A stretch of DNA of 64,000 nt, taken from NCBI RefSeq assembly GCF_050320075.1, contig NZ_CP190018.1, one strand, 5' to 3'. The first letter of the stretch is position 1. Every line of letters starts with the position of its first letter. The position numbers and the translations under genes are program-made. The DNA is from Escherichia coli. GTDB lineage: Bacteria > Pseudomonadota > Gammaproteobacteria > Enterobacterales > Enterobacteriaceae. The notes beneath the pieces were generated by a model. The model saw only the letters and a list, made by a program, of their open reading frames with translations, ran no database searches and was not told the DNA's origin. Below, piece after piece: positions 22,318-63,146 of the stretch.

Positions 22318-22665
22318 GTGGAAGAAGAAATCTTCACTCGTGAAGAGGCAGCGTCGTATCTGAAGGTAGACAAAGGCACTATCACGCAGTGGATACGAAG
22401 TGGACGACTTCAGGCCGCAAAGATAAATCCAGATAAACCTAAAAGCCCATATCGCATTTGCAAGTCAGACTGCATTGCGGCGCTTAAGTCTGTGAGACAC
22501 AATAGCGCGGTGAATGCGGTTGATGTGCAGGAGGTTAAAGCATGTCAATCAAACTACGCGGTGGCACGTGGCACTGCGATTTCGTCGCGCCAGATGGATC
22601 AAGAGTTAGACGCTCTCTTGAAACATCGGACAAAAGGCAAGCGCAAGAACTTCACGATCGTCTGA
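22318..22665 (+). CDS. xis: Excisionase (Xis), P22-like; 3' end uncertain
   Basis: Immediately upstream of int; ORF overlaps the int start by about 120 nt. Confidence 0.55.
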   Translation: MEEEIFTREEAASYLKVDKGTITQWIRSGRLQAAKINPDKPKSPYRICKSDCIAALKSVRHNSAVNAVDVQEVKACQSNYAVARGTAISSRQMDQELDALLKHRTKGKRKNFTIV

Positions 22666-23702
22666 AAGCAGAAGCGTGGAGAGTAAAAAATCTCGGGGAA
22701 TCACCGAAAAAGCTATTCAAGGAAGCCTGCATACGGTGGCTGCGTGAGAAATCGGATAAGAAGTCCATTGATGATGACAAGAGCATTATATCGTTCTGGA
22801 TGTTGCACTTCAGAGAAGCCATTCTCTCTGACATAACAACAGAAAAAATAATGGAGGCGGTAGATGGGATGGAAAACCGCCGCCATCGCCTGAACTGGGA
22901 GATGAGCCGGGACAGGTGTTTGCGACTTGGCAATCCGGTGCCGGAGTATAAACCAAAGCTTGCAAGCAAAGGAACGAAGACGAGGCATCTGGCAATACTT
23001 CGCGCCATTCTCAATATGGCTGTTGAATGGGGATGGCTTGACAGGGCACCCAAAATATCAACACCACGCGTTAAGAATGGACGCATCAGATGGCTTACAG
23101 AGGAGGAATCGAAGCGCCTGTTTGCAGAAATTGCTCCTCACTTCTTCCCTGTGGTCATGTTTGCAATCACGACAGGCCTTCGCCGTTCCAACGTTACAGA
23201 CCTTGAGTGGTCACAGGTCGATCTGGATAAGAAAATGGCATGGATACACCCTGATGAAACAAAAGCTGGCAATGCGATCGGAGTTCCTCTTAACGAAACC
23301 GCATGCCAGATATTAAGAAAACAGCAGGGGCTCCATAAGAGATGGGTATTTGTCCACACCAAACCTGCCTACCGAAGCGACGGAACAAAAACAGCAGCGG
23401 TAAGGAAGATGAGAACCGACAGCAACAAGGCATGGAAGGGAGCGTTAAAGCGGGCAGGCATTAGTAACTTCCGCTTCCATGATCTGAGGCATACCTGGGC
23501 AAGCTGGCTGGTTCAGTCCGGTGTCTCTCTTCTTGCACTTAAAGAGATGGGAGGATGGGAAACTCTCGAAATGGTTCAAAGATACGCCCACCTTTCAGCC
23601 GGGCATCTCACCGAGCACGCAAGCAAAATCGATGCGATTATAAGTCGCAATGGCACAAATACGGCACAAGAGGAGAACGTGGTGTATTTAAATATGGGGT
23701 AA
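22542..23702 (+). CDS. int: Tyrosine integrase, P22-type, thrW-specific
   Basis: 386 aa; aligns from the N-terminus with remembered P22 Int; catalytic HDLRHTWASWLVQ...YAHL motif; adjacent to tRNA-Thr. Confidence 0.9.
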   Translation: MSIKLRGGTWHCDFVAPDGSRVRRSLETSDKRQAQELHDRLKAEAWRVKNLGESPKKLFKEACIRWLREKSDKKSIDDDKSIISFWMLHFREAILSDITTEKIMEAVDGMENRRHRLNWEMSRDRCLRLGNPVPEYKPKLASKGTKTRHLAILRAILNMAVEWGWLDRAPKISTPRVKNGRIRWLTEEESKRLFAEIAPHFFPVVMFAITTGLRRSNVTDLEWSQVDLDKKMAWIHPDETKAGNAIGVPLNETACQILRKQQGLHKRWVFVHTKPAYRSDGTKTAAVRKMRTDSNKAWKGALKRAGISNFRFHDLRHTWASWLVQSGVSLLALKEMGGWETLEMVQRYAHLSAGHLTEHASKIDAIISRNGTNTAQEENVVYLNMG

Positions 23703-23716: not shown

Positions 23717-23792
23717 TGGTGCCGATAATAGGAGTCGAACCTACGACCTTCGCATTACGAATGCGCTGCTCTACCAACTGAGCTATATCGGC
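23717..23792 (-). tRNA. thrW: tRNA-Thr (anticodon CGU)
   Basis: 76-nt minus-strand sequence GCCGATATAGCTCAGTTGGTAGAGCAGCGCATTCGTAATGCG...CGGCACCA with cloverleaf. Confidence 0.95.
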
Positions 23793-30170: not shown

Positions 30171-31628
30171 GTGTCTGAACTGTCTCAATTATCTCCACAG
30201 CCGCTGTGGGATATTTTTGCCAAAATCTGTTCTATTCCTCACCCGTCCTATCATGAAGAGCAACTCGCTGAATACATTGTTGGTTGGGCAAAAGAGAAAG
30301 GTTTCCATGTCGAACGCGATCAGGTAGGTAATATCCTGATTCGTAAACCTGCTACCGCAGGTATGGAAAATCGTAAACCGGTCGTCTTGCAGGCCCACCT
30401 CGATATGGTGCCACAGAAAAATAACGACACCGTGCATGACTTCACTAAAGATCCTATCCAGCCTTATATTGATGGCGAATGGGTTAAAGCGCGCGGCACC
30501 ACGCTGGGTGCGGATAACGGCATTGGTATGGCGTCTGCGCTGGCGGTTCTGGCTGACGAAAACGTGGTTCACGGCCCGCTGGAAGTGCTGCTGACCATGA
30601 CCGAAGAAGCCGGTATGGATGGTGCTTTTGGCTTACAGAGCAACTGGTTGCAGGCTGATATTCTGATTAACACCGACTCCGAAGAGGAAGGTGAAATCTA
30701 CATGGGTTGCGCGGGGGGTATCGACTTCACCTCCAACCTGCATTTAGATCGTGAAGCAGTTCCAGCTGGTTTTGAAACCTTCAAGTTAACCTTAAAAGGT
30801 CTAAAAGGCGGTCACTCCGGCGGTGAAATCCACGTTGGCCTGGGTAATGCCAACAAACTGCTGGTGCGCTTCCTGGCGGGTCATGCAGAAGAGCTGGACC
30901 TGCGCCTTATCGATTTCAACGGTGGCACACTGCGTAACGCCATCCCGCGTGAAGCCTTTGCGACCATTGCTGTCGCAGCTGATAAAGTCGACGCCCTGAA
31001 ATCTCTGGTGAATACCTATCAGGAAATCCTGAAAAACGAGCTGGCAGAGAAAGAGAAAAATCTGGCATTGCTGCTGGACTCTGTTGCGAACGATAAAGCT
31101 GCCCTGATTGCGAAATCTCGCGATACCTTTATTCGTCTGCTGAACGCCACCCCGAACGGTGTGATCCGCAACTCCGACGTGGCAAAAGGTGTGGTCGAAA
31201 CCTCCCTGAACGTCGGTGTGGTGACCATGACTGACAATAACGTAGAAATTCACTGCCTGATCCGTTCTCTGATCGACAGCGGTAAAGACTACGTGGTGAG
31301 CATGCTGGATTCGCTGGGTAAACTGGCTGGCGCGAAAACCGAAGCGAAAGGCGCATATCCTGGCTGGCAGCCGGACGCTAATTCTCCGGTGATGCATCTG
31401 GTACGTGAAACCTATCAGCGACTGTTCAACAAGACGCCGAACATCCAGATTATTCACGCGGGCCTGGAATGTGGTCTGTTTAAAAAACCGTATCCGGAAA
31501 TGGACATGGTTTCTATCGGGCCAACAATCACCGGTCCACACTCTCCGGATGAGCAAGTTCACATCGAAAGCGTAGGTCATTACTGGACACTGCTGACTGA
31601 ACTGCTGAAAGAAATTCCGGCGAAGTAA
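30171..31628 (+). CDS. pepD: Cytosol non-specific dipeptidase PepD
   Basis: 485 aa; M20 peptidase. Confidence 0.95.
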   Translation: MSELSQLSPQPLWDIFAKICSIPHPSYHEEQLAEYIVGWAKEKGFHVERDQVGNILIRKPATAGMENRKPVVLQAHLDMVPQKNNDTVHDFTKDPIQPYIDGEWVKARGTTLGADNGIGMASALAVLADENVVHGPLEVLLTMTEEAGMDGAFGLQSNWLQADILINTDSEEEGEIYMGCAGGIDFTSNLHLDREAVPAGFETFKLTLKGLKGGHSGGEIHVGLGNANKLLVRFLAGHAEELDLRLIDFNGGTLRNAIPREAFATIAVAADKVDALKSLVNTYQEILKNELAEKEKNLALLLDSVANDKAALIAKSRDTFIRLLNATPNGVIRNSDVAKGVVETSLNVGVVTMTDNNVEIHCLIRSLIDSGKDYVVSMLDSLGKLAGAKTEAKGAYPGWQPDANSPVMHLVRETYQRLFNKTPNIQIIHAGLECGLFKKPYPEMDMVSIGPTITGPHSPDEQVHIESVGHYWTLLTELLKEIPAK

Positions 31629-31684
31629 TTATTTGATTTGCTGCCGGATGGCGTTTAATCGCCTTCCGGCAGTTTCATCCTTCA

Positions 31685-32240
31685 TTATCCTTCGATAAAA
31701 GCCATCCCTGTAAATGTCCGTCTCGGGTTGCCACGTTCAATCTGGTGATGGAACATTCGCCGCTGCGATTTCAGCACCGCGCTATTTTCCTGTTGCTGTT
31801 GTTCCAGCTTCCAGGCAATCAGCAATCGCGCCAGCCGCTTGTTAGCATGCCCAGAAACAAGTTTTTGCGCCCATGATGAGGCCGATACGGACTCGGACAA
31901 ATCCACTGAATAGTGCCGCACCAACTTTCGCTTAATGCCCATGCGTTATCGCCATCCAGAGAAATCAGCGCCGAACGCAGCGTGTCAGAGCAGCGGCCCG
32001 TTTCTGTTTCCAGCACCGTTACCGCGACGTCTTGCCGGGTAAAAACGACCAACAGAGAATAACGCTGCGCCAATCGGGTAGCCGCGTCCGGGGTGTAAAT
32101 CTGGCATCCCTACTACGCGCTGCATGTTGGGTAAATTTGCCGTGGTGTGTAATTGTTGGATCGCTAAACTCTCGATCCACAGGTCATCAGATGCGATGGT
32201 AAATACCGCATCGGATAAGGGACGAATATATTTGCCCATG
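31685..32240 (-). pseudogene. prfH: Remnants of an rtcB-like / prfH ribosome-rescue pair (fragmented)
   Basis: Three overlapping ORF fragments in different frames: RtcB-like N-terminal fragment, PrfH-like middle and PrfH C-terminus. Confidence 0.7.
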
Positions 32241-32484
32241 TATCATTCCATTTATACTCGTCATACTTCAAGTTGCATGTACTGCGACTCGAATTATTTA
32301 GAGTATATAAATATAAAAATCAGGAAATGGCAGACGAATCCAGGGCAAGAAAAAAAGAATTAATCCTGGAAAGGTCTGCAAAGAGTCATTGATAAAGGAT
32401 TTGTCATGATTTACCTCCTTGCAGTTTGTGGAATAAGAAAACGCGCACATACTAGGCGGGCGTTATTTTCATTGCAAGCTGGAT

Positions 32485-32937
32485 TTAATGTTGCGGTTTA
32501 TATCGTATATAAAAATTAGTAAACCACGCTCCCCGGCATTCAACGCGCTGCTGCTTAACTGTCTGAAAACCATAACGTTCAAAAAAGGGTTTTGCGGTTA
32601 TGCTGGCATCTACCGTTAGTTCGGATTCAGACTTAATCAAAGGTTTTAACAAAGCGCTGGCAACCCCACGGCGGGTGTATTCAGGGTCAACAAATAACAT
32701 ATCGATATAATGTTCAACGCAGGTAATAAAGCCGACCAGTTTTGCATTAATGACTGCAACCCGCACTTGTGATTTCGCGAGTTTCTCCTTCCAGCGAGAT
32801 TCGTCAATCTGCGCCCAGGCGGCAATTTGTTGTGGTGAATAATGCTGACTGGCGGTCATCGTAACCGCTCTAATGAAAATAGCGCATAGTTGCTGAAAAT
32901 CGCCAGGCTGATAATCTCTTATTTGTATGTTATTCAT
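32485..32937 (-). CDS. yafP: GNAT acetyltransferase YafP
   Basis: 150 aa; last gene of the dinB operon. Confidence 0.9.
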   Translation of the reverse strand: MNNIQIRDYQPGDFQQLCAIFIRAVTMTASQHYSPQQIAAWAQIDESRWKEKLAKSQVRVAVINAKLVGFITCVEHYIDMLFVDPEYTRRGVASALLKPLIKSESELTVDASITAKPFFERYGFQTVKQQRVECRGAWFTNFYIRYKPQH

Positions 32938-32946
32938 AATATAAAT

Positions 32947-33345
32947 TCAAAAACGCATGCGAAACGCTTCTGCCATTTTTCCAATTTTATGCATTTGGTT
33001 GTTATCTCGAGCCAGTTTATGAGGTTCAGGCTTCAGAATGGCAATGAGCAACCATGCTTGCTCATCAAACGCACCCTGACAATATACCAAATGCGCTTCG
33101 TCATTCGTTCTGCTGAATTGGCGCAACTGTGGCGGAAATGGATTATTCACATTTGCCAGATGAATATGAGCAACTCGCTCAAATTTGATTAATGGCCAGG
33201 TAAACGAGTCGTCGTAGAGTGCATCGCGACCAAATATATCTGGCAAAACACCGTCACGCTTATAGGAAATAAAATCCGCCGTTAACGCATCAAGTTCCTC
33301 TGCTGTAAGTTGCAGGCGAATAAGTTTTGTTTTGAATACCCGCAT
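32947..33345 (-). CDS. yafO: YafO ribosome-dependent mRNA interferase toxin
   Basis: 132 aa; follows yafN. Confidence 0.9.
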   Translation of the reverse strand: MRVFKTKLIRLQLTAEELDALTADFISYKRDGVLPDIFGRDALYDDSFTWPLIKFERVAHIHLANVNNPFPPQLRQFSRTNDEAHLVYCQGAFDEQAWLLIAILKPEPHKLARDNNQMHKIGKMAEAFRMRF

Positions 33346-33347
33346 CC

Positions 33348-33641
33348 TTATTCCTTAAAGTCATTGAAATCATCATCCGTCATATCATTAAGATATTGTT
33401 CAGCGCGGCGTGTAATTTCCTCTAATCTTGCGGCACTCGGACGGAAGCGCGCCTTCACCAGTTTTTTCTCCTCTTGTTCTGCAAGCATGTCCATTAACGC
33501 TTCGAATGCGCTGGCACTTAAGAGATATCCTGCGGGGCGATTATTAGAAAGAACCGCAACCGGTTGATCAATAAAGTATTTTGCTGGATTTTTACGTAAC
33601 TCAGTGATATTGACCGATTTTTCAGCGAGAATTCGATGCAT
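33348..33641 (-). CDS. yafN: YafN antitoxin
   Basis: 97 aa; Phd/YefM-like. Confidence 0.9.
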   Translation of the reverse strand: MHRILAEKSVNITELRKNPAKYFIDQPVAVLSNNRPAGYLLSASAFEALMDMLAEQEEKKLVKARFRPSAARLEEITRRAEQYLNDMTDDDFNDFKE

Positions 33642-33692
33642 ACAGTGATACCCTCATAATAATGCACACCAGAATATACATAATAGTATACA

Positions 33693-34748
33693 TCATAATC
33701 CCAGCACCAGTTGTCTTTCCATTTGCGGGTCAAGCAACGTCACATGCAGCCCCACCAGCCGCACACCGCGCCCGCCGCGACGTTCATCCCAGGTTTTACG
33801 CGCGGTGGCAATTAAGTCAGCTTTATTCAGCCGCGGCCAGACGTGCTCCTGAGTGGTTTGCTGAAAATCATCAAACTTTAATTTCACCCCCTGGCGAGCA
33901 ATCAGTAAATCAGGTTTTACTTTTGCCAGACGGCGTTCAAGTTCCGGGTACAGCCGCTCGATAATCGCTTCACATTCAGACCAGTGATGAATATCTTCCG
34001 CCATCGTGCGTTCCACGCCGACGGATTTTCGCAACCGTTCGCTGTTAACGTCGCGCTCGTCAATCCCCTGACTACGCTCCCACAAAATGCGGCCAAATTT
34101 GCCAAAACGTTTGAGCAGAGTCACCAGATCACACTTTTGCACATCACCGCAGGTCCGCAGCCCCATCGCTTCCAGTTTTGCCGCCGAGACTTTGCCGACG
34201 CCGGGGATTTTTGCCAGCGGTAAGGTTTGTAAAAATGTCGGAACTTCTGCCGGCGTAATCACAAACTGGCCGTTGGGTTTATTCATGTCGGAGGCGATTT
34301 TGGCGAGAAACTTTACTGGTGCCACGCCCGCAGACGCCGTCAGTTGCAGCTCGCTGAAAATCGTCTGGCGGATTTCCTGGGCGATGAGGGTCGCAGAACC
34401 GTGGCAATGGACGCTATCGGTGACATCGAGATAGGCCTCATCCAGTGACAACGGTTCAATGCGCGAGGTGTAGCGCGAGAAGATTTCACGGATATGATTT
34501 GAGGCTTCTTTGTAGGCGTCAAAGCGCCCCGGAAGCAAGGTGAGATGTGGGCATAATTTGAGCGCCATCCCAGTAGGCATAGCGCTACGTACGCCAAATT
34601 TACGCGCGGGATAATTGGCGGTGCTGATCACCCCCCGACGTTCGCGGCTGCCGCCAATAGCAATAGGGATATCGCGCAGGGCGGGATTGTCGCGCATCTC
34701 CACTGCGGCGAAAAAGCAGTCCATATCCACATGAATGATTTTACGCAT
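33693..34748 (-). CDS. dinB: DNA polymerase IV
   Basis: 351 aa; [33 protein letters not shown]... Confidence 0.95.
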
Positions 34749-34818: not shown

Positions 34819-35515
34819 CTAGCGCGTTCGCTGCGAAAGCACCTGCTGCTTATCCAGCTTTTGCACCAGCGGCTGCACCACTTTATCCCCATGCTGACCA
34901 AAGTATTGATACAGCGTATCGGACGCACTTTTGGTCAGCACCATAATCTCAATGCGTCGGTTGCCCGCGCTTTGCGGATTTTTCGCGTCCAGCAGCATCT
35001 GGTCCGCCATCGCGCTCACCTGCATCACTTTATCTTCCGGCATTCCGGCCTCTTCCAGCACCCGACGAGCCGAAAGCGCGCGATCGCCCGAAAGGTTCCA
35101 GTTGTTGTAGATATTGTTTTTGTAGGCCATCGCATCGGTATGCCCGGTAATAATAATTTTGTTATCGAGCGAGTCGAACACTGGCGCGAGCTCCACCAGC
35201 AAAGTTTTAAAGAACGGCATAATCTGTGCGCTGCCGCGTTCAAACATATTGCGGTTCTGGTCATCTTTAATCAGCACGCGCAGTCCCTGGGGAACAATCT
35301 CCATCTCCAGATTCGCTTCCATATGTGCATCACGGGCAATGGTGTTGATACTGGTCGCCAGCTCGCCAAGCTCAGTAGCGGATTTCTTCTTCAGCAGCGC
35401 CGTTTTCTCATTGACGTCACGCGCTTTTTTCTCCGTCTCTTCCGGCACCGCCACGGTGGCAGGTTTTGGCGGATGAGACAGGCTGATTTTATTTAACGGC
35501 GACAACCCGCCGCCA
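34819..35515 (-). pseudogene. lafU: lafU (mbhA) remnant, MotB-like, N-terminally truncated (Flag-2 remnant)
   Basis: OmpA-like peptidoglycan-binding C-terminal region; upstream part of the ORF is not protein-like and overlaps lfhA. Confidence 0.7.
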
Positions 35516-37288
35516 TTGAAAATCGACTGCCCGTGCAGCGCGGCGATAATGCTTTCACGCTCGGATTTACTGACGCTGTTGACAATCAACTTTATCGTCG
35601 TCACCAAAGGGGCCGAGCGTATTTCCGAGGTTTCTGCCCGCTTTACCCTGGACGCGATGCCCGGCAAACAGATGGCGATTGACGCCGATCTTAACGCCGG
35701 GTTGATCAACCAGGCGCAGGCGCAAACCCGGCGTAAAGATGTTGCCAGCGAGGCCGATTTCTACGGCGCAATGGACGGGGCATCGAAGTTTGTGCGCGGG
35801 GATGCCATCGCCGGGATGATGATTCTGGCGATCAACCTGATCGGCGGCGTCTGTATCGGGATCTTCAAATACAACCTGAGCGCCGATGCCGCCTTCCAGC
35901 AATATGTGCTGATGACCATCGGCGACGGCCTGGTGGCGCAGATCCCGTCCCTGCTGCTTTCCACCGCGGCGGCGATTATCGTCACCCGCGTCAGCGACAA
36001 CGGCGATATTGCCCATGACGTGCGTAACCAGTTGCTGGCAAGCCCGTCGGTGCTCTACACCGCCACCGGGATCATGTTTGTGCTGGCGGTTGTGCCGGGG
36101 ATGCCGCATCTGCCGTTTTTGCTGTTCAGCGCCCTGCTTGGTTTTACCGGCTGGCGGATGAGCAAACGCCCGCAGGCGGCGGAGGCGGAGGAGAAAAGCC
36201 TCGAAACGCTGACCCGCACCATCACCGAAACCAGCGAGCAACAGGTCAGTTGGGAGACTATTCCGCTGATCGAACCCATCAGTTTAAGCCTCGGTTACAA
36301 ACTGGTGGCGCTGGTCGATAAAGCGCAGGGTAACCCACTCACCCAGCGTATTCGCGGCGTGCGGCAAGTGATATCCGACGGCAACGGCGTGCTGCTGCCG
36401 GAGATCCGTATTCGGGAAAACTTCCGCCTCAAGCCCAGCCAGTACGCCATATTCATCAACGGCATTAAGGCCGATGAAGCGGATATTCCGGCGGATAAAC
36501 TGATGGCCCTGCCCTCCAGCGAAACCTACGGCGAGATTGACGGCGTGCTGGGGAACGACCCGGCGTACGGGATGCCGGTGACCTGGATCCAGCCCGCGCA
36601 GAAAGCGAAAGCGCTGAATATGGGGTATCAGGTGATCGACAGCGCCAGCGTGATCGCTACCCATGTGAACAAGATTGTGCGCAGCTATATTCCTGATTTG
36701 TTTAACTATGATGACATCACGCAGTTGCATAACCGTTTGTCGTCGATGGCACCGCGCCTGGCGGAAGATTTGAGCGCGGCGCTCAATTACAGCCAATTGC
36801 TGAAAGTGTACCGGGCGCTGCTGACCGAAGGCGTTTCCCTGCGCGATATTGTCACCATCGCCACCGTGCTGGTCGCCAGTAGCACAGTGACCAAAGATCA
36901 TATCCTGCTGGCGGCCGATGTGCGCCTGGCATTGCGGCGCAGCATTACCCATCCGTTCGTTCGCAAGCAGGAGCTGACGGTGTATACGCTGAATAATGAG
37001 CTGGAAAATCTGCTCACCAACGTGGTGAATCAGGCGCAACAGGGCGGGAAAGTGATGCTCGACAGCGTGCCGGTCGATCCGAATATGCTCAACCAGTTCC
37101 AGAGTACGATGCCGCAGGTAAAAGAGCAGATGAAAGCGGCGGGGAAAGACCCGGTGCTGCTGGTGCCGCCGCAGTTGCGTCCTTTGCTGGCGCGTTATGC
37201 AAGGTTGTTTGCGCCGGGGCTGCATGTGCTGTCGTATAACGAAGTGCCGGACGAGCTGGAGTTGAAGATTATGGGGGCGTTGAGTTGA
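35516..37288 (+). pseudogene. lfhA: lfhA remnant, FlhA-family export-gate protein lacking its N-terminus (Flag-2 remnant)
   Basis: FHIPEP-family sequence from about residue 45 of the ORF; garbled N-terminal 40 aa. Confidence 0.75.
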
Positions 37289-37371: not shown

Positions 37372-37671
37372 ATGACGTCATGGATTGATAGTATGATTAA
37401 GGTCAGCGCGCTAGGCTCTCGTCATAGAAAAACATTCGACGATGTAATGACGGAGCCGCCAAAATCTGGAATTAAATGGGATGATGTTGTTGCACTCATT
37501 AAAGCTGTGGGTGGAACAATAAAAAATAACAACGGCTCCAGACGAAAATTTCAGATTGGAACGACCAAATTCAGCACACATGAGCCACATCCAAAGAATG
37601 TGATGGATAAAGGCGCAGTAGCAGGTCTTAAGGAGTGGTTTGTTAACTGTGTAGGGGTAGATTATGAATAA
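37372..37671 (+). CDS. HicA/YcfA-family toxin-like protein (start uncertain)
   Basis: GSRRKFQIG...THEPHPKNVMDKGAVAGLKEW resembles the HicA G-S-H...PHPKKD core; followed by a HicB-like gene. Confidence 0.55.
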   Translation: MTSWIDSMIKVSALGSRHRKTFDDVMTEPPKSGIKWDDVVALIKAVGGTIKNNNGSRRKFQIGTTKFSTHEPHPKNVMDKGAVAGLKEWFVNCVGVDYE

Positions 37672-38020
37672 AGCATCGAACATTATCACAATTAAAGGTC
37701 AACCAGCCGCAGTGACATTTGAAGCCGATATCAACGCATTTCGCGGCAAGTTCCTCAATGTAAACGGTTATTGTGACTTTGTAGCCACAAGTATTGAGGC
37801 ATTATATCGTGAAGGCGAAAGCGCGCTGGATGAGTGGATGGCGGATTGTGAAGAGGACGGTATTGCCCCTTTTCGTGAAGAAGAAGAGCAAAAACGCCTG
37901 ACGCTTCGTGTTCCTCATCACATTGATTCGCGGCTGACCATCGTCGCCAGACAACATTCCATTTCAAAAAACCAGCTCATTGTTGATGTCTTAGAACGTG
38001 AGTTTTCAGCCCAGATGTAA
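37664..38020 (+). CDS. HicB-family antitoxin-like protein with C-terminal RHH-type region
   Basis: 118 aa; ATG after AGGGGTAG; overlaps the upstream stop; C-terminus RLTLRVPHHIDSRLTIVARQHSISKNQLIVDVLEREF. Confidence 0.55.
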   Translation: MNKASNIITIKGQPAAVTFEADINAFRGKFLNVNGYCDFVATSIEALYREGESALDEWMADCEEDGIAPFREEEEQKRLTLRVPHHIDSRLTIVARQHSISKNQLIVDVLEREFSAQM

Positions 38021-45463: not shown

Positions 45464-45831
45464 CGAAAGCCCGGAGCCTGTCCATCATTCTGTGTAAATG
45501 CCTTTCTCAGAAGTGACCGTCAAGGCGGTCACCGAACTCGATAATAAAGCGACTCATCCCTATCCGCCAGTCCTGAAGTGGCATCGTCCATTTTTGCGAC
45601 GCTGACTGGAAAGCCAGCCACACCACTTTTTTCACCGACTCATCTGTCGGGAACACTTTCCGTTTCTTTATCGCATGTGTGATGATGCTATTCAGCGATT
45701 CGATTGCGTTAGTGGTGTAGATAACCTTGCGGATCGCCTCCGGGTACACGAAGAATGTGGCAACATTCGGCCAGTTTGCCCGCCAGCTGCGACTTATCTG
45801 CGGGTACCGTGCATCCCATTCCTTCCCAGGG
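45464..45831 (-). mobile_element. IS256-family transposase remnant (C-terminal fragment only)
   Basis: ORF 45507-45749 resembles the C-terminal end of mutator/IS256-type transposases; bracketed by a 15-bp direct repeat AGATTACGAAAGCCC at 45449-45463 and 45832-45846. Confidence 0.55.
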
Positions 45832-45836
45832 AAAGA

Positions 45837-46958
45837 TTACGAAAGCCCGCTCCCCGCAAGGACTGACGCCAGATAGTTTCTGTCCATGGCTGCTTTTCGC
45901 ATCTTACGTCTTAACCCTGCCTTGAATACCTTATCATTCGTCAAAATATTAATAGCGATGTGCCGTATCCCTGAAAATAATTCTGCTGCGTTTCCTCTTC
46001 TTATTTTGCAGTCGTCTTCATTCATTACCACGTCCAGACGCCAGTGCAGCTTATTCTCCACGTGCCAGTGGTTTCGGATTGCTGTGGCGAACTTCTCTGC
46101 GGTTAAATCAGCAGAACTAATATAATATCTGACCGTCATTTCTGGCTCTTTCTTTTGTTCTGCTATTATTGACCGAAAGGAGACTGCCACGCATAATTTC
46201 TTCAGACCTTTCCATTCAAACGTGAAATCAATAAGTTCATCAGGGACATCGCAAACAATGTGAAGACGGATTTCTTCTCTGCCGTGACTCTTTTCACTCA
46301 TTGCGTAACTGTCATGCTCTGGATTATTTAATTCTTTCAGCGGAAATTTTTCCTCGAAGGCTTTATTTAGCCGCCCCTGGTTTCCTTTTACAGCGAATAA
46401 ATAATCACCTCCCTGTTTTTGTATCTTCTCTGCAATATCTTTCTGGCAACCCATCGCATCAGTTGTGATGATTTTTCCTTTAATATCCAGCATGTTAAGA
46501 AGTTCTGGGATAGCTATAATTTCATTGGATTTCTCATCCGTCCTGATCTGTCCGATGACCAGACTGTGCATTGTTGAGAACGCACTAATGACATGAATCG
46601 CTCCCTTGCGGCGACTCTTGTCATAAGAATGCCGGAGTGTTTTTCCATCAATTGCGATGACGTCTTTATCATCTGAAGTATGGCAATCTCGCATCCAGTT
46701 AATAAAGCACTCGTGAAATTTTGCAGGACTGATACAGGATACAACTCTGGCGATGGTATCGTGAACAGGAATACCATTTTCAAAATCACCGTATTGTTTT
46801 AAAAAATCGAGATGTGTTTCCCCAAAATCCTCTATATCTTCCCAACCTTCCGCACCCGAAATAACGGCACAAATAGTCAACAGTAGAATATCCGATAATT
46901 TATGTTCCACTTTCCAGGCTTGTCTGTAATCGGGGATAATAGAAATATGCCCCATCAA
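45837..46958 (-). CDS. ISAs1-family (H-repeat) transposase
   Basis: 373 aa; H-rpt/ISAs1-type transposase; directly downstream of an Rhs toxin-immunity pair. Confidence 0.85.
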
Positions 46959-47193
46959 TTTTTTAAGTTCTATTTTGTTCTCCTTAATTATGTAAGGAGT
47001 ATTTGATCATGTATAAGCAATAAAAAACAGCTTTAGGTAATGAGGAATATCTCAATTTTTAAACATAAAATGCGAATTATTTAGTACAAAAAAGCAGCGT
47101 TACGTGATCTTTCCCTGCACTTCACCCTAACTTTAATTTAACTTCAAGAAGTATTAAGGCCTCAATAGCGAACTTAATACTTCTTAAAGAATA

Positions 47194-47571
47194 TCACTCC
47201 TGACCAAAATCTTTCCACACTAATGCATGAGACTTTGATTTATCACCCAAAAATTTACTTACATCTTTCCAAAGTAAAGAATTGCTATCGGTCGCAGTGA
47301 CTATTGCCTCTATAAGCCCTGTAGCTACAACTGTGGCCAATTCATCATCAATCGAGACCATACCATCTTCGACATGTTTAAATATTTTTTCTCTTTCAAT
47401 ATCACCCATTTCATAAAAATTTTTTACAATCGTTTTTCCAATCTGAGAGAACAACATAACCACCGGTGGAGTTTCTGGATGCCAGTATTCATTAGCTAAT
47501 GAGACTGTCTCAGACAAAACAGTGGAAAACGATGCCATTTTTTCTATATAATTAGCAATATATTGGTTCAT
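47194..47571 (-). CDS. Putative immunity protein for the Rhs C-terminal toxin
   Basis: 125 aa, low-GC ORF starting at the Rhs stop; position is the only evidence. Confidence 0.5.
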   Translation of the reverse strand: MNQYIANYIEKMASFSTVLSETVSLANEYWHPETPPVVMLFSQIGKTIVKNFYEMGDIEREKIFKHVEDGMVSIDDELATVVATGLIEAIVTATDSNSLLWKDVSKFLGDKSKSHALVWKDFGQE

Positions 47572-50500
47572 TACTTGCCTCCCAAAGCATTCTGTAAATC
47601 CTGAAGAACGTTTTCTGCTGCTGCTCGATCCCCTGGAGATGCTGTTGGATTCTTATCCAACCAATCCTGTAAAGCCCTTGTATAATCCTGTGCTTTCAAT
47701 ACATGTCCTCTACCACCAACTTTTTCACCTGTGGCCAATTCATAACGAACAGCATCTGCTGTGCTTCCACTTCCTACTTTTGCATTTGGCCGATAAAGAT
47801 CGTCTATAATATTTTTCAAATTTGAATCTGTAACGTCAGGTTTTCCCATCTTCTGTCGCAATTCATCTTTATACCGTTCATGCTGCATACGATCTCTTGC
47901 GCTATTCTCATCTTCTGGTCCCCATCCTCCCGGGCTTCCCGTACTGCCACCACCCAGGCAGTTCTTCTCTTCCTCCGTCAAATCCTTCCCGACATTTGGA
48001 TTCTCTTTTGATGAATCATCATTTCCAAACACGCTGGAAAAAGCACCATAGGGATCTCGCCAGAATTCCATTTGACTTTGTGCATTTAATAATTCGGCTT
48101 CACCCTGCATCTCCATACTTTTCTCAATCGCGTCCCCAACAGCCTCGCGATTGTTGTATATTATTATACCACCACCAATAACCACCGTACCGACTGCCGC
48201 ACCGACTAACATCCCCGGAGGGCCTCCTACCGAACCGATCTCTGTACCTACTTCAGAACCAGTTCCCATGGCAGTTAATGCTCCTGCGCCCAACGCCGCA
48301 CTTAATCCCAGCGGATCCAGCCGTTGCACCGGGTTCAGTGGATACGCATACAGGTTCCATCCCCCCTTCAGCCCAATCGGATCCTGGGTGATATACCTCC
48401 CCTGTAGCGGGTCATAGTACCGGTGACGGTTGTAGTACAGCCCCGACTCCTCATCATACTGCTGCCCCGGCAGACGGAGTGACTGTTGAAGGTGCTGCGT
48501 GCTTTCCTCTCCCAGCAGGTTTCCCCACTCGTCATACTCCCCGCGCCACGCCGTTTCCCCTTCCGGGCTGATAAGCGCCTGCGGCAGCCCACGGTGGTCA
48601 CAGTGGTAAAGATGAAGTTTCCTCTCCGGGATGTATTCCGCCTCCAGTTGCGCCGCCATCTGTTCCGCCGTCAACCCACACTGTGCAAGCCACTGCTGGC
48701 TTTCTTCACTCACGCTGCCCTGCCGCAGTTCCCGCTCCAGCCTCCCCAGCATCACCGCCAGCTCCGCCGGTAGCGTCACACCCGTGTCCTCCTGCAACAC
48801 CTCCGCCAGGCTACGGTGCCGCGCCTTCGCCTGTTCGCCATTCTCTGTTTCGATTCTCAGGAGCGGCGTGAAGCTCCCCGGCTGGTATACCGTCTGGATA
48901 CGCGTGGTGTCGGTCTGTACCGTCGTCAGCCTGTCGCCGTCCCACCCGTACCAGGTCACCTCCGGTTTACGCGACAGCGACATCCACCCCGTCAGGTCAC
49001 GCTCCCGCCGCCACACCCGTTTTCCCGTCCGGCGGCCCAGCGGGTCATAGAGGTAGCGGCTCTCCACCTGTGGCTCGCCGTGCTGTATCCGCGTGTAGAA
49101 CACCAGGCGGTGCTGGCTGTCGTAATGGTAGTGGTGCGTCCGCTCGTCGTGCATCCGTATCACCCCTTCCGGGATACGGTCCGTCTTCTCCGCCAGCCTG
49201 CCGTATTCATCGTAGCGGTAGACATAGTGCGCATCTTCCGTGATGCGGTTATCCGGCCATGCCGTGAGGGTGCTGTCCGGGTGCAGTTCCGGGTCCGGCA
49301 GCCGGTTTCCTGCCGGGTCCGTCGCATACGGGATATCAATGTCCAGGTTCGCTGCCGTGGTGTGGACGCCCGTCAGCCTTCCCGTGTCGCTGTAACGGTA
49401 CTCCCGGCTCTCCTGCGGGCCGCTGATGCGAATTAGCTGTCCGTTGTCGTTCCAGTCGTAGTCACGGTCAAGCTGCGGAAGGTTCAGGTGCCTGCTCCGG
49501 AGCTGGCCGCTGGTATTCCAGGCGGTGGCAAGCTCATATGCCTCCCCGCCGAAGCTGCGGGCCGTCTCACGGTGCAGCCGGTCCCGCGTGTACTCGACCA
49601 GTGGCGTACCACCCAGCTTCATTCCCGCAAGATAACCGCTGCCATACGTCAGCCACTCCACCGGCGGCAGACCGTCCGGCTCCTGACGGGTCGCCAGCCC
49701 CTGTTCGCTGTACGCGTGCTTCGTCTCATGCTCCCACAGCATCTCCCCCGTCTCCGGGTTCTCCACCGTCTGCCGTTCGCCCGTCAGGCGGCCTTTATCG
49801 TCGTGGCCGTAGTGGACCGCCACACGGTGGCCTTCGCTGATATGGCTGATTTCTGTCAGCCAGCCGTGCTCATCATACTGCCACTGCTCCGCCGGGTCGC
49901 CGTTCACCGTCCGGTGCGTGATGCGGTCCGACGCATCGTAATGCCAGAGGGTGATAAGTCCCTCGTCTTCACTGTGGACAAGCTGCCCTGTGGCGCTGTA
50001 CCGGTAACGCTGCGTCCTGCCGTCAAAGCCGCGCTGCTCCGTCAGCCTGTCCACCGGGTCATACCGGAACGTGGACTGGCTGCCGTTCTCGTTGGTCAGC
50101 ACGGTGATGCGCCCGGCAGCGTCATACCCCATGCTGCGCGTCAGACCGCCTTCCGTCACACTCACCGGACGCCCGCGTTTATCATATTCGATGGTGCTGC
50201 GTTTACCGTCCGGTGATATCGTTGCTGTCAGGTCGCCTGCGGCGCTGTACTCATAACGGGTTTCACGCCCCTGCGCATCCTTCTGACTGACCAGTTGGCC
50301 TCGCGGGTTATAACTGCTGTAAGTGCTGATGCCTTCCTCCCGGTGAACGGCGATTTGTTGACCGTACCGGTCATACTCATACCGCGTCATGTACCCCGAG
50401 CAGTCCGTGAAGGCCCGAAGCTGACCGTACCGGTTTCGCGTTATTCTCCGCGTCACCCCGATTCCGTCTTCCACCGCGCCGGGCAGGCTACTGCGGGGGG

Positions 50501-50792
50501 AGTCATAAAACCAGCGCGTAATGTTACCGTTGCGCGAGATCTCTTCTGCCAGTCGGCCCTGACGGTCATATTTCCGGCTGCTGCGTAAACCATCCGGATA
50601 TGTCACTGAAGTCAGTTGCAACTGGCTGTTGTAACCATACCGTACCGTCCTGCCGTCCGGCAGTATCACTGAAGTCAGCTTTCCAGACGCCATATGCAGC
50701 CGGTACTCCGTCCGCCGTCCTGCCGCATCCGTCTGCGCCTTCAGCCTCCCCCGCCTCATCATACTCGCTGCGGGTGATGCTCCCGTCGGCAT
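47571..50792 (-). CDS. Rhs polymorphic toxin, core YD-repeat region and variable C-terminal toxin domain (downstream part of a frameshifted gene)
   Basis: 1073 aa; YD repeats; DPxGL boundary (RLDPLGL) then Gly-zipper segment and about 150 aa unassigned C-terminal domain. Confidence 0.85.
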
Positions 50793-52071
50793 GCTCCTTC
50801 TTCACCACACGCTTCAGGCCACCCCCGCCTTCCGTGTACAGCACCTCCCGCCGGTTCAGGCTGTCCGTGATGGTCACACGGTCCTGCCCGTACTCAAAGC
50901 GGTAGTCCAGCCCCTCCGGGTTGACCTGCTCCGTCACCCGCCCGGTATCATCATACCGGTAGCGGCTCTCCGGCCTCCCTGCATAATGGTGCGCCACCAT
51001 CCGCCCGGCGTGCTCCGCATCATAAGTAAACCCGCGCACCTGCGTCCCGCTGCGGTCATACACCGCCCGCAGTTCTCCGCTGGCCGTGTACGTATAGCGC
51101 GCCAGCGGCGCAGTCGGCTGTTCATCCGGGTATGCCGGGTCGTGTGTCAGCCACACCGCCTCCAGCCGGATACCGTTATCGGCACCGTATTCTGTACCGG
51201 CGGGCAGCGTATCGGGGAAAACCTGAGAAGAGGAAACAGAACGGGGACCGGCTGGAGAAGATAAAGAAGAGGCGCGCTGTTTACGGAAGGCTTCCGCCCG
51301 CTGCGCCTGCGTGCTCAGCGCCAGGTGAAAACAGCGGCCCGCGCCGTCCGTCACCCCCGTCACCGCACCCGCCACGTCACCCTCTGCCGCCCGGTGGAAG
51401 GCCAGCGTCCGCCCGAAGCCGTCCACCACGCCCGTCAGCACCCGGTATGCGGGCGGCTCCGGCGGCAGCACCTCGTCCGCCCCCGGCACCCGCTCCGGCC
51501 AGCCGAGCACCAGCCACTGCCCGGTTGTGCTGGCAGCCATCATATAGATGTGTGGACTCAGACGGACCGCTTCCGGCAACGCCCGCCAGAGCCGCGCAAG
51601 CGGGTGGCCTTTGTGCTGTTTCAGCACCCCGCACCGCGCCAGCCAGAACGACTCGCTGCGGCTGTAGCTTATCTCGCCGGGAAACAGGGGTTCAAAGTGA
51701 ATGCTCCTGCCGCCGCTGTCGTTGAGTATCAGGCCTTCATCGCGTATCTGTAAGCGGATATCGAAGGGGGCTTTCCAGCCGGGACCAAACCCCCCCACCG
51801 GCGCGGGCGTCCTGGTCCGGTAGCTGCTGTAGGCGCGGAAAAGAACAAACGGCAGCGGGCCGGACAGTGCCAGGTCGGTTTCAGCAGGCAGCACCTTCGC
51901 TCCCAGCAGCGGGTTTACCGGATTGCCATATTTCGGCGTGGCTTCCCCTGTGGGACACACCGAGCAGGCCACACCGGTTGGCGCACCTATCAGCACCCCT
52001 GCTGAACCCTGCACAATATCCAGTCCCTTGCGGGTCATGTCACCCTGCCGCGCCGCCGGTTTTCCACCCAT
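50566..52071 (-). CDS. PAAR-domain N-terminal part of the Rhs effector (upstream part of the frameshifted gene)
   Basis: 501 aa starting [13 protein letters not shown] (PAAR-like); overlaps the downstream ORF at 50566-50792 in another frame. Confidence 0.8.
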
Positions 52072-52146
52072 GAATCAATTCCTTCTGCTTTTAATATGGT
52101 TTATCTGGTCACTGCACCAGTTCCGTTTTAATTTTTTGCACCTGAC

Positions 52147-54288
52147 TCAAAATTGCCGCATATCCGGCATTCCGGGGGGTAAATCTTTCGGCACAGGCGC
52201 ATCCGGTACAGGTTGTGTGGCACCACAGTTCCAGTTAATCACCGGCGCATCACCGTTCACATCCGACTCTCCTTCCAGATGAATGTGCGTACCATTGAGA
52301 AATATGCTTCCGTCCTTCGTCAGCACCAACCTTGCCTTACCGCAGCAGAGTTCCAGATGCTCACCGGCAGAATAAACTGCTGTTTGTCCGGTGTTTTCCT
52401 TCATCGTCTTGCCCACCGAGAAGGTGACGTTATTCCCTACATTGACGCTGTAGCCCATTCCCACCATCAGTGATTTATGCAGCCCTACCTGTGAGGACTG
52501 CAACAACGCCACCGAGGTATTCATGATGCCGCCTACCGTCGTCTGGTAAGCCACGCCCACCGTCAGCGCACGAATGATCCCCACCTTTTCAACCTGGTTT
52601 GAACCCACTTTGACAATCTGGTTGCTGCCTACCGTTTCCACCTGGTTGACACCAACCGTCTGTATCTGATTAACGCCAATGTTCTGGATCTGGTTATTGG
52701 TAACGGTGATCGCCTGGTTGTTACCTATTTTTTCGGCATGGTTGTTTATCACATCAGTGGTGCGGTTATTCAGCACCTCGGTGTTCATGTTCTTCTGCGC
52801 GTGGATGTAGACCTGTTCTTTCCCTGTCGCATCGTCAAACTTCAGTTCATTAAACCCGCTGCCCTTATAGGTTTTTGAACGAATGGTCATCTGCGTCTTT
52901 GTTCCCGGCAGGCTGCCGGGGGTGCGGTTTTCCTGGTGGTAGGTGCGCCCCATAATAATCGGCTGGTCCGGATCGCCGTTGAGGAAGTCCACAATGACTT
53001 CCTGACCCACACGCGGTATCGCCAGGTTGCCAAAGCCGGTGCCTGCCCACGCCTGTGCCACACGGATCCAGCATGAACTGTCCTGGTTTGACGGGTTATA
53101 GCGGTCCCAGTTAAATTTCACCCGCACGCGGCCATGTTCATCACAGAAGATTTCTTCTCCTGCCGGTCCCGTCACGACGGCGCTCTGCGGGCCGTCCACC
53201 AGCGGTTTCAGCAACGGCTGTGGCCGCCATGTTCTGTCTGCCGGTATTACCGCAAAGTGGTTATTCAGCGTGGTACCTGAACCCCTGCGTCCCGGCACCG
53301 CCTGCGGCTGCTCGCCGTGCAGTTCACTTGCCACCACCTGCCATTCCCGGTTCAGGTTCGCCTGCGGATGCCCCGTCAGCGCAATTCGCCGTCCCGGCCA
53401 TATCTCCGGCGAACGGCTTGTTCCGCGCGCCACTTCTGCGTTGTTTCGCCAGCCATCCATCTGCCAGCAGGCAAAGTTCTGCCCGTGGGCACCCTTGAAA
53501 CGTCCGGGGTAGTCATACACTTCATACTGTGTGCGCTGGTAATCCTGGTGCTGGCCTTCCTGATCAAAACGCCCTGCCCAGCCGGGTCGTTTAAAGGTGT
53601 AGTCTTTGGTCACCACGGAAGATGGGCGGATTTGTGCGCTGTAGAGGAACTGGCTGATGCATAGGGTGCTCACCTCGGTACGGGTGTTCGGATTCCAGGG
53701 GATCTCAAAGGACTCCGGCAGATAACGCACGGTGTCGCACAGGACCAGGCTCTGGTCGGTACTTTTTTGCGCGTGCTCCTCATAAAAGAAGATGCCTTCC
53801 TCCGCCGCCATCCGGCACAGGAAATCGTAATCGGTTTCGCCGTACTGGACACAAAACTCACGGGAAGGATGCGGCTCGCTGAACAGCGGACTCCACTCGG
53901 TCACCCCGTTTTCTTTCAGGATCGTCGCGAGTATGCTTTCGATGTCCTCATTCTGGAAGATACGGAAGTTCTGGCGCAGCCCTGTGCGCCACAGCGGTGG
54001 GCACACCTTCATGCTGTACAGCATCTGGTTTTTGTCGTTCTCCCCCAGTTCAAACCAGGTCACCACACCTTTCACCCGGCGCTGTACGTCATCGCCCTGC
54101 CATACCGTCAGGTAGGCCATTTTGTCCAGCACCTGCGCAAATTCAAGGGAGAGAAACTGCTGGCTGACCAGAGAGAGATCGAGGGAAAAGAGCGAAGAGA
54201 GTGACTGGTTCAGATGAAAGGAGACCACCGCAAACGCGTCCGGTGGCAGGCCGTCCACTTCCAGCGTGAAACGTAATCCGGTTGACAT
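52147..54288 (-). CDS. vgrG: Type VI secretion spike protein VgrG
   Basis: 713 aa; gp27/gp5-like with C-terminal beta-helix repeats. Confidence 0.9.
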   Translation of the reverse strand: MSTGLRFTLEVDGLPPDAFAVVSFHLNQSLSSLFSLDLSLVSQQFLSLEFAQVLDKMAYLTVWQGDDVQRRVKGVVTWFELGENDKNQMLYSMKVCPPLWRTGLRQNFRIFQNEDIESILATILKENGVTEWSPLFSEPHPSREFCVQYGETDYDFLCRMAAEEGIFFYEEHAQKSTDQSLVLCDTVRYLPESFEIPWNPNTRTEVSTLCISQFLYSAQIRPSSVVTKDYTFKRPGWAGRFDQEGQHQDYQRTQYEVYDYPGRFKGAHGQNFACWQMDGWRNNAEVARGTSRSPEIWPGRRIALTGHPQANLNREWQVVASELHGEQPQAVPGRRGSGTTLNNHFAVIPADRTWRPQPLLKPLVDGPQSAVVTGPAGEEIFCDEHGRVRVKFNWDRYNPSNQDSSCWIRVAQAWAGTGFGNLAIPRVGQEVIVDFLNGDPDQPIIMGRTYHQENRTPGSLPGTKTQMTIRSKTYKGSGFNELKFDDATGKEQVYIHAQKNMNTEVLNNRTTDVINNHAEKIGNNQAITVTNNQIQNIGVNQIQTVGVNQVETVGSNQIVKVGSNQVEKVGIIRALTVGVAYQTTVGGIMNTSVALLQSSQVGLHKSLMVGMGYSVNVGNNVTFSVGKTMKENTGQTAVYSAGEHLELCCGKARLVLTKDGSIFLNGTHIHLEGESDVNGDAPVINWNCGATQPVPDAPVPKDLPPGMPDMRQF

Positions 54289-54497
54289 AGCAACCTCCGG
54301 GTTTAAGGAAAAACAGACAGTTCGCTGTTAAAGCGGCTGTAACAGTACAGTGTTACGCTTGCGTTCAGGCACGCTACCGCCGAAGTTTCCGGCATCCGCC
54401 ATCTCCCGTGAACGTAACCCCTTACTGACAACCTTTCTTTTTACGGCGTAATACAAAAACAGCATCCGGCCTAATAGCCGGATGCTGTTGGCTTAAC

Positions 54498-55016
54498 TTA
54501 TGCTTCCAGCGGTGCGCGCCAGTCGTCGGCACCGGAGGTGCCAGACTTGACGTGTTCCCACTCTATTTTGCGGTAGGCCAGTGAAACTTCGAGCAACTGG
54601 GTGAACTCGCGTTTCGCCGGATCCTGGCAATGCGGCATATGCAGTTTCATATCGACAATCGTCGAATCGGTCAGGCGGGTGGTGAAATAATGCTCCTGTT
54701 TGCCTTCCACAGAGGTACGCCACCAGTGAAGTTCAGTGGTTGGCAGCATTTCGCCGGAGGCCAGTGCGTTGTACATCAGCGGAACAGCTTTGTTCAGCGC
54801 CACGGTAAAAATGAACGGCTTGTGAGCACGCTGACCCGCAGGCTGGCCGGACTGAGGATCGGTCGGGACAGTAACGTTATGCAGGAATTCCTGCACCAGC
54901 ATCTCGTCTTCGTGCCCCTGCACATAGATGTTGCCGACAGAATCAGCGGTAAATGCACCTGCAGTAATATTTCCCTGGGTCTGACCAGTGATGGAGATAT
55001 AACACGGTGTTGGCAT
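54498..55016 (-). CDS. hcp: Type VI secretion tube protein Hcp
   Basis: 172 aa; Hcp-family sequence upstream of vgrG. Confidence 0.9.
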   Translation of the reverse strand: MPTPCYISITGQTQGNITAGAFTADSVGNIYVQGHEDEMLVQEFLHNVTVPTDPQSGQPAGQRAHKPFIFTVALNKAVPLMYNALASGEMLPTTELHWWRTSVEGKQEHYFTTRLTDSTIVDMKLHMPHCQDPAKREFTQLLEVSLAYRKIEWEHVKSGTSGADDWRAPLEA

Positions 55017-55712
55017 TTGTAAACTCCTTGTTAACGTGGTTAATTACTACTTACAATGACCTGCCGTTAATCCCAGACAGGCAGATGCAACTCACTTCAC
55101 GGAACCGCATCATTTTTCAGTATTTTTTACATACAAACCGAGCTAGAATTTACGGTTGTCGTAAAAACTATTTTTAAAATCATTAAATCTCTTATTCAGC
55201 AATAAGTTAATAATATATATCTGGATAACCATACCCAACTGTTCAAAGTCCGTATTGCCTCCATAAAATGGCCAAAGCTGAATCATGAATAAATATTGTA
55301 TTTATCCTTTCTGAATTATCATTTTGATAATTTTTGAGATATTCCTTAAAAATACCCACTTAATCAATCACAAAACAAATATATAAACAAGCAATCATCA
55401 GATTAGCTTATGTTTAATGAAATTATTATATAATTCAATAAGTTACATAAAAACTCTATATTTAAATTATTGCCATAATACACCTGACGCGAATTTCGCA
55501 GGTTCACACAATCTATTTAACGCTTGCAGAATACCTCTCTTTACGATCGATAAAAAGTCCTTTTCTTATTTATTTTGAAGCGTAGAATGCGGGGTGATGA
55601 AGGAGTGGTGATTTTATTTTCACCGCCATTAGGGCGGCATTGCCGATATTTTTTTGCGGTACAAATATGCCGTGTTCATGGCCTGTACGAGATAACATGA
55701 CGGATCACTTTT

Positions 55713-56213: not shown

Positions 56214-56247
56214 CCACCACTATTTCATTAAACAGGGTTATCCAGAC

Positions 56248-56472
56248 ATGGCGGCACACAAAAATATCTCCGGGAAACACCCCCTCTCTGACGAAGACAT
56301 TTTGCAGGCGGTTTACCGGGTATGTTTCAGCCCGTCCGGTGAAATCAACCGGGATGGCGTGGATGCGCTGATTACAACACTGGATCGCCGTATCAGTGAT
56401 CTATTGGATGAGATTATCCATCTTTGTGAGTTTCAGCAGAGCGCGCCGTACTGGCGGCGCGTACTTCACTGA
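56248..56472 (+). CDS. Small hypothetical ORF between tssB and tssC
   Basis: 74 aa from the internal ATG of ORF 56203-56472; no recognisable family. Confidence 0.3.
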   Translation: MAAHKNISGKHPLSDEDILQAVYRVCFSPSGEINRDGVDALITTLDRRISDLLDEIIHLCEFQQSAPYWRRVLH

Positions 56473-56522
56473 CGGCGAAAACCCGGTTTCAGAAACACAG
56501 CTAAAACAGAAGGATTTTCAGT

Positions 56523-57998: not shown

Positions 57999-58004
57999 CA
58001 CACC

Positions 58005-58418: not shown

Positions 58419-58421
58419 CAA

Positions 58422-63144: not shown

Positions 63145-63146
63145 TT

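Follow-up and report, generated by a model that had tools for sequence, protein, structure and literature searches.

A remnant of the rtcB2-prfH ribosome repair operon in Escherichia coli, opened by two deletions and still preceded by a conserved leader

The locus in this report raises a simple question: do the three short open reading frames (ORFs) between pepD and yafP in an Escherichia coli chromosome still encode a ribosome repair module, and what does the DNA upstream of them now control? The window, by which we mean the whole stretch of 64,000 nucleotides that was analyzed, has 100% identity over its full length to positions 3991582-4055581 of NZ_CP123240.1, the chromosome of E. coli YZLc1-3. 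In the PGAP annotation of that record, prfH (window 31685-32037) is a pseudogene, “frameshifted; incomplete; missing N-terminus,” and an RtcB-family pseudogene corresponds to window 32033-32239. The rtcB2-prfH remnant is an already known and already annotated pseudogene pair, and its decay in K-12 has been in print since 2006. It lies between pepD and yafP in the K-12-like order pepD / prfH / ykfJ / yafP, and a search of the chromosome found this single matching place.

The intact pair repairs ribosomes that have been cut by toxins. Colicin E3 and CdiA-CT(ECL) cleave 16S rRNA between A1493 and G1494; PrfH recognizes the damaged 70S ribosome and frees the peptide by means of its GGQ motif, in which Q122 is essential; and the 16S rRNA is finally resealed in the 30S subunit by RtcB2 (PMC9304027, PMC13166195). 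Strain ATCC 25922, with an intact operon, is protected from colicin E3, whereas BW25113, with a truncated operon, is unprotected (PMC9223846).

The coding remnants and their flanks are listed here in window coordinates.
30171-31628, plus strand: pepD, one flank of the remnant
31641..31672, no strand: inverted repeat of 16+16 nt, 88% complementary, between the convergent pepD and prfH ends
31685-31942, minus strand: ORF 1, 85 aa
31685..31849, minus strand: C-terminal PrfH remnant (residues 151-204 and stop), read in frame within ORF 1
31819-32073, minus strand: ORF 2, 84 aa
31847..31850, no strand: junction of the 169-bp deletion, with ATGC microhomology
31852..32037, minus strand: middle PrfH remnant (residues 32-93), read in frame within ORF 2
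31985-32239, minus strand: ORF 3, 84 aa, a YkfJ-type chimera of RtcB2 residues 1-69 and 15 out-of-frame residues from prfH DNA
32033..32039, no strand: junction of the 1027-bp deletion, with imperfect TGYCGG microhomology
From 32485, minus strand: yafP-yafO-yafN-dinB, the other flank of the remnant

The initial annotation spoke of three overlapping ORF fragments in different frames, a description that needs two adjustments. There are indeed three minus-strand ORFs at these positions, with overlaps at 31819-31942 and 31985-32073, but ORFs 1 and 3 do not overlap each other; and although the middle ORF is in another frame, only two frames are involved, since ORFs 1 and 3 share one frame and are separated by stop codons. 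Plus-strand ORFs and a 50-aa minus-strand intergenic ORF were rejected as genes for want of any Pfam match. The inverted repeat between the two gene ends is probably a bidirectional terminator hairpin.

The ORFs were correctly taken as pieces of an RtcB-like ligase and a PrfH-like factor, with E values of 1e-15 to 1e-30 against NF007153 and TIGR03072. ORF 3 begins at the native rtcB2 start codon, and its exact 84-aa sequence is present in public data as YkfJ in at least 1,000 contigs. Its RtcB2 piece matches positions 1-69 of 379 in NF007153 (E=1.5e-30) at 106.5 bits, compared to a cutoff of 407 and a score of 642.5 bits for the intact protein of strain SX23; PF01139 gives 23.4 bits, under its cutoff of 27. 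The middle and C-terminal PrfH pieces match positions 32-93 (E=7e-24) and 150-200 (E=1.4e-15) of the 200 positions in TIGR03072, scoring 84.4 and 57.3 bits versus a cutoff of 166.65 and 328.4 for intact PrfH, and they align with PDB chain 7sa4_8 (cryo-EM structure 7SA4) at residues 32-95 and 150-204. The residues that remain are little changed: the 151-204 remnant is identical in amino acids to intact PrfH, and the 32-93 remnant has three differences. No remnant fragment matched PF00472 (RF-1 domain) in Pfam, no full-length RtcB2 or PrfH match above the curated cutoffs of NF007153, PF01139, and TIGR03072 was found at the remnant, and three-frame translation of 31685-32239 gave no continuous rtcB2 or prfH reading frame, the observation that would have spoken for intact genes.

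What has been lost is the catalytic part of each protein. RtcB2 homology stops at residue 69, and the GNDIGCG block, which starts at residue 72 of the intact protein, lies with everything after it inside the 1027-bp deletion. The catalytic core of RtcB comprises this metal-binding block together with the downstream His residues, including the guanylylated His. PrfH residues 32-94 and 151-204 are still encoded, in different frames, and residues 1-31 are gone. The rRNA-recognition domain of PrfH comprises residues 2-98 and 180-204 (PMC9304027).

The deletions were mapped by BLAST with the intact SX23 locus as the reference, in which rtcB2 encodes 379 aa, prfH encodes 204 aa, and the rtcB2 stop and prfH start overlap by 4 nt. 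Such an alignment had been proposed at the outset as the way to place the deletion and the frameshifts, and it resolved the window into three aligned blocks with exactly two gaps, of 169 and 1027 bp. Outside the gaps the window DNA is 94-99% identical to intact loci; about 68% of the coding DNA of the intact module is missing, all catalytic motifs included. That other strains carry an intact pair was likewise correct: SX23 and SE15 both encode a 379-aa RtcB2 and a 204-aa PrfH, in agreement with the literature (PMC1586002, PMC9304027, PMC9223846).

With the 1027-bp deletion, RtcB2 is lost over residues ~68-379 and PrfH over residues 1-30/31, and what remains of the two genes is joined out of frame. 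Its junction sequence is identical in K-12 DH1, and the BLAST breakpoints are equal in K-12 DH1, O157:H7, Res13, SWYHX138, and EcPNK004; those of NC19 are at most 1 nt off. In this deletion the decay is, as had been suggested, that of laboratory E. coli. The breakpoints are thus common to seven alleles of different lineages, among which further decay varies. Baranov et al. described a deletion of ~1000 nt in K-12 and O157:H7 (PMC1586002), and Tian et al. considered that the K-12 deletion presumably inactivates both genes (PMC9304027).

The 169-bp deletion (BLAST offsets 4000 to 4169 in the intact SX23 locus) takes PrfH residues ~95-150, the GGQ at 120-122 among them, and causes a +1 frameshift, and as a result the prfH ORF of K-12 is split in two in the window allele. 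This junction is also found in EcPNK004 and NC19 and is absent from K-12; the window allele is therefore more decayed than the laboratory (K-12) allele by one deletion. In SWYHX138 the internal deletion is another one, of ~170 bp, and NC19 combines the 169-bp deletion with a long ERIC (enterobacterial repetitive intergenic consensus) element. These differences are consistent with a single early inactivation and subsequent erosion, separately in each lineage; the 1027-bp deletion would then have come first and the 169-bp deletion later.

A probable ERIC element is a further source of length variation at the locus.
32253..32307, no strand: probable ERIC short form, an inverted repeat of two terminal arms, 55 nt, between the leader and the rtcB2 start
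SE15 has no ERIC element, the window and SX23 have the 55-nt short form, and K-12, O157:H7, and NC19 have the full form of ~127 nt. A full ERIC is a ~127-nt imperfect palindrome with sites for the primers ERIC1R and ERIC2. K-12 has 72 more bases at the site, which match both primers with one mismatch each, and the window copy consists of the outer arms only, without either primer site. A sub-threshold Rfam match to the isrH sRNA at 32251-32317 coincides with the ERIC arms and was rejected.

Several features of the flanks and of the wider window were noted in passing. In SX23 and SE15, which have the intact operon, yafP directly overlaps dinB and the yafN-yafO toxin-antitoxin pair is absent, whereas in the deletion strains YZLc1-3 and DH1 yafN-yafO is present (window counterpart 32485-34748); with two strains per side, this pairing may be a coincidence or may reflect linked haplotypes. 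Positions 1-23792 hold a lambdoid or P22-like prophage (portal, terminase, lysis cassette, ninB-ninH, cII/cI-like regulators, and ERF recombinase) with its integrase at 22548-23702, integrated at tRNA-Thr (23717-23792), beside proA, as read from the YZLc1-3 annotation and an Rfam tRNA match. Beside dinB, lafU and an N-terminally truncated flhA-like pseudogene (34819-37288) look like another decayed remnant, that of a lateral-flagellar (Flag-2) cluster, and a hicA/hicB toxin-antitoxin pair (37393-38020) sits between the flhA remnant and yafL. Two transposase genes, one partial and one of ISAs1, lie in 45507-64000 along with an RHS core protein gene that is frameshifted (47571-52071), with vgrG and hcp, and with the first part of a type VI secretion cluster, from tssB on.

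How widespread the deletions are was counted with probes taken from the deleted segments. Among 5,426 complete E. coli genomes, a biased collection whose counts are not population frequencies, the 996 bp central to the 1027-bp deletion are kept in 2,715, so that about half are without the segment; a contiguous arrangement like that of the window occurs in 2,669; and a 157-bp segment encoding the GGQ is kept in 4,756, leaving about 670 (12%) without it. The window allele itself is matched by 262 records at 99% identity or better over 961 bp. Two 81-nt junction probes were dropped: the one on the 169-bp junction was confounded by pieces joined across the gap, and the one on the 1027-bp junction gave an undercount (1,931 genomes versus ~2,700), probably through short-query sensitivity. 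Because about half of the complete genomes lack the center of the operon, its presence or absence is a common polymorphism; it is one that bears on bacterial competition, and the nested deletions make convenient lineage markers.

A rival reading is that the remnant has acquired a new function under selection, be it the 84-aa YkfJ under a stalling-responsive leader or the leader peptide or RNA itself. In 7/7 deletion alleles the YkfJ ORF is unbroken and keeps its start codon, and among the deletion alleles the leader core has 1 segregating site in 103 nt versus 38 in 555 nt of the remnants. In addition, the part of PMC3516279 that cites Morita 2006 reports K-12 ykfJ to be inducible by 4-azaleucine. 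The YkfJ fragment, however, is without every catalytic part of RtcB, and low divergence is to be expected anyway, since the deletion is recent and the ancestors were functional. The dN/dS of the remnants relative to the intact allele, 0.17 from only 14 substitutions, is unlike neutral decay but mostly reflects divergence that predates the deletions and is uninformative on decay after them. The window allele has a G-to-A change in the ribosome-binding region of rtcB2, at 32243, and several lineages have further deletions, which is a pattern of decay. The K-12 PrfH fragment gave inclusion bodies on expression (reviewer comment, PMC1586002). We regard such a new function as very unlikely.

Programmed frameshifting or another form of recoding that would join the fragments into a working PrfH-like or RtcB-like protein, as in prfB, comes to mind because a programmed +1 frameshift is part of release factor 2 expression and because the remnant has overlapping fragments in different frames; it has practically no chance of being right, since the DNA for PrfH residues 95-150 (the GGQ domain), PrfH residues 1-30, and RtcB2 residues ~68-379 is physically absent, so that recoding is unable to restore the catalytic parts, and the fragments score under the curated family cutoffs. 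Frame breaks in single assemblies are often artifacts, but sequencing or assembly errors in genes that are really intact are scarcely conceivable here, given that the missing DNA amounts to 169 and 1027 bp rather than to single-base indels, that the 961-bp region recurs at 99% identity or better in the 262 records, that the same 1027-bp breakpoints are found in independent complete genomes including K-12 and O157:H7, and that about 2,700 genomes lack the central segment.

The region is almost certainly what remains, in non-functional form, of the two-gene rtcB2-prfH operon. In strains with the intact pair, PrfH, a release-factor homologue, enters the A site of the cut ribosome, and RtcB2 then religates the rRNA. 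In the window a presumably old 1027-bp deletion at a short microhomology removed RtcB2 residues ~68-379 and PrfH residues 1-30, and a presumably later 169-bp deletion at ATGC removed the GGQ segment, with a shift of frame. Three short out-of-frame ORFs are left, none of them expected to ligate RNA or to hydrolyze peptidyl-tRNA. [quoted passage not shown] Ribosomes cleaved by colicin E3 or CdiA-CT are predicted to go unrepaired in strains with the window allele.

Upstream of the remnant, the leader of the operon is still in place. Its features are the following.
32449..32477, minus strand: putative promoter-like site, TTGCAA (32472-32477), 17 nt, TAGTAT (32449-32454), just downstream of the yafP stop
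32414-32420, minus strand: strong leader Shine-Dalgarno AAGGAGG, 6 nt upstream of the mini-ORF
32360..32407, minus strand: leader mini-ORF MTNPLSMTLCRPFQD, 15 codons plus stop, homologous to Pseudomonas aeruginosa PA5471.1
32234..32429, minus strand: leader RNA region, a covariance-model match of 104.6 bits
32415-32424 with 32376-32385, minus strand: helix P1, CUGCAAGGAG with CUCUUUGCAG, the leader Shine-Dalgarno region paired with a site inside the ORF
32374-32379 with 32330-32335, minus strand: helix P2, GCAGAC with GUCUGC, recovered by RNAalifold
32365-32369 with 32340-32344, minus strand: inner helix of P2, CCAGG with CCUGG
32323-32330 with 32243-32249, minus strand: helix P3, CCAUUUCC with GGAAUGA, covering the rtcB2 ribosome-binding site

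The spacer between yafP and rtcB2 is 245 nt long and unusually conserved, with ~138 nt of it invariant across seven E. coli alleles, including that of the B2 strain SE15; in coding DNA, rtcB2 differs by ~5% between SX23 and B2-type alleles such as that of SE15. The mini-ORF is invariant across the seven alleles. The promoter-like site scores 8/12, under the scanner threshold of 9/12, and the sigma-70 promoter scan returned nothing on the minus strand; a -10-like TAnnAT is visible in the upstream regions of Citrobacter, Ralstonia, and Pseudomonas as well.

A scan of representative bacterial genomes found 80 rtcB2 loci, and an ORF of 13-17 codons lies upstream of rtcB2 on the same strand at all 80 and at 3/3 plasmid or megaplasmid loci. 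The hosts include Enterobacterales, Pseudomonas, Ralstonia, Cupriavidus, Achromobacter, and others. Nearly all of the leader ORFs have a (T/S)LC(R/G) core, with variants in Achromobacter, P. fuscovaginae, and a Klebsiella plasmid, and the synonymous positions of the conserved codons are fixed, always CUU UGC, which argues that the constraint is mainly on the RNA. The leader motif matches no Rfam family, and MG1655 has no feature annotated at the leader. No mention of the leader in E. coli or elsewhere outside Pseudomonas was found in the searchable literature, a search to which Morita et al. 2009 (PMC2715736) did not belong.

Two groups of loci were noted separately. The K. pneumoniae IncC plasmid NZ_CP086440.1 (1026-2912) carries a divergent rtcB2-prfH pair, with RtcB2 53% identical and a leader ORF of its own, MQNTSTSFAGLVR, immediately upstream of sul1; since this pair sits on a conjugative IncC resistance plasmid, the ribosome repair module is also mobile. 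The Achromobacter and P. fuscovaginae loci (L085, L092, and L095) have the variant leader ORFs MQNTMQQQTSHAAGRV and MQNTASSLAERAQA and were missed by the covariance model, and in L095 the pairing between Shine-Dalgarno and ORF seems to be kept through a compensatory change (GCCA with UGGC).

The helices share bases. The consensus of P2 pairs GCAGRC, made up of the last four bases of the P1 3' arm and two more, with GYCUGC 40-80 nt downstream, and the 5' arm of P3 consists of the bases directly after P2. As P2 overlaps P1 as well as P3, the helices are arranged as in a classical four-segment attenuator (1:2 and 3:4 versus 2:3). Across 51 sequences, 87% of the structure is paired and the covariation score is 0.332; scores of 0.33-0.34 compare with 0.19 in shuffles, of which 0/500 reach the observed value, and slid controls do not exceed 0.134. 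Pairing in P2 amounts to 97-99%, and three to four of its six pairs show double-sided changes. In an alignment of 81 distinct sequences, which was fitted to the covariance model and so favors the structure, P2 is 98.8% paired with double-sided changes at 4/6 pairs, and P3 is weaker, at 75% paired. P1 hardly varies and is therefore beyond the reach of a covariation test.

The covariance model was built mostly from enterobacterial and non-aeruginosa Pseudomonas leaders, many of the 86 sources searched being held out. It gave exactly one match in 83 of them, each directly upstream of rtcB2 and on the rtcB2 strand; in the window, 32234-32429 is its only match in 64 kb, and it also matches the locus of P. 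aeruginosa PA7. Among the seven deletion alleles, a G-to-A change (minus strand) at 32243, in the P3 and rtcB2 ribosome-binding region, is present only in the window allele and EcPNK004. The leader of the window allele is otherwise complete.

The P. aeruginosa homologue suggests what such a leader does. PA5471.1 is a peptide of 13 aa with Q3 and F4 (PMC3516279, PMC13041342), and its leader has been modeled as a four-segment attenuator that senses ribosome stalling (PMC13041342, PMC12057347). In this model, full translation of the leader keeps the operon off and early ribosome stalling turns it on; the mechanism of induction by stalling has been shown only in P. aeruginosa (PMC13041342). By homology to PA5471.1, the leader in the window most likely still senses ribosome stalling, and the reported induction of K-12 ykfJ by 4-azaleucine (PMC3516279, where Morita 2006 is cited) fits a leader that is still active in deletion strains. 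With its promoter-like site, its 15-codon ORF, and its three helices, it would now control only the 84-aa YkfJ fragment. On a broader reading, to which we give about even odds, the leader would serve generally to regulate rtcB2-prfH operons in cis throughout Gamma- and Betaproteobacteria, with P2 competing with P1 and with P3; it would detect stalled or damaged ribosomes and turn on the repair genes, and in about half of E. coli strains it would be an intact but orphaned switch ahead of a pseudogene. If it senses in the manner of PA5471.1, ribosome damage would be linked directly to induction of the repair enzymes, and the enterobacterial leader would offer a compact model of a switch of this type.

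The output of the switch may differ between groups. A canonical intrinsic terminator in the enterobacterial leader was not adopted as a reading, the U-rich tract lying 8-12 nt after P2, inside the P3 loop. In the compact enterobacterial form, no U-run follows the last helix, which covers the ribosome-binding site; this arrangement makes translational control the likelier mechanism there.

Among known systems, the remnant closely resembles that of K-12, whose ykfJ (b0235) and prfH (b0236) pseudogenes occupy the same place with the same 1027-bp junction and whose YkfJ differs from the 84-aa ORF of the window by one residue (F60L). K-12 is without the 169-bp deletion and has the full ~127-nt ERIC, whereas the window has the 169-bp deletion and the 55-nt short form. 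The intact RtcB2-PrfH modules of ATCC 25922, CFT073, SX23, and SE15 (PDB 7SA4) have DNA orthologous to that of the window, the same leader, and the same neighbors. In P. aeruginosa, PA5471.1, armZ (PA5471, RtcB2 family), and PA5470 (PrfH) form the same type of operon with a leader ORF, and a TLCR core is common to the leader ORF of PA7, MIQFSTLCRLRLA, which is the known PA5471.1 peptide, and to that of E. coli. The P. aeruginosa spacer is longer, at ~212-250 nt, and has been described as a transcription terminator, and ArmZ has taken on an anti-MexZ role there; the enterobacterial spacer measures 60-100 nt, and its last helix lies over the rtcB2 ribosome-binding site.
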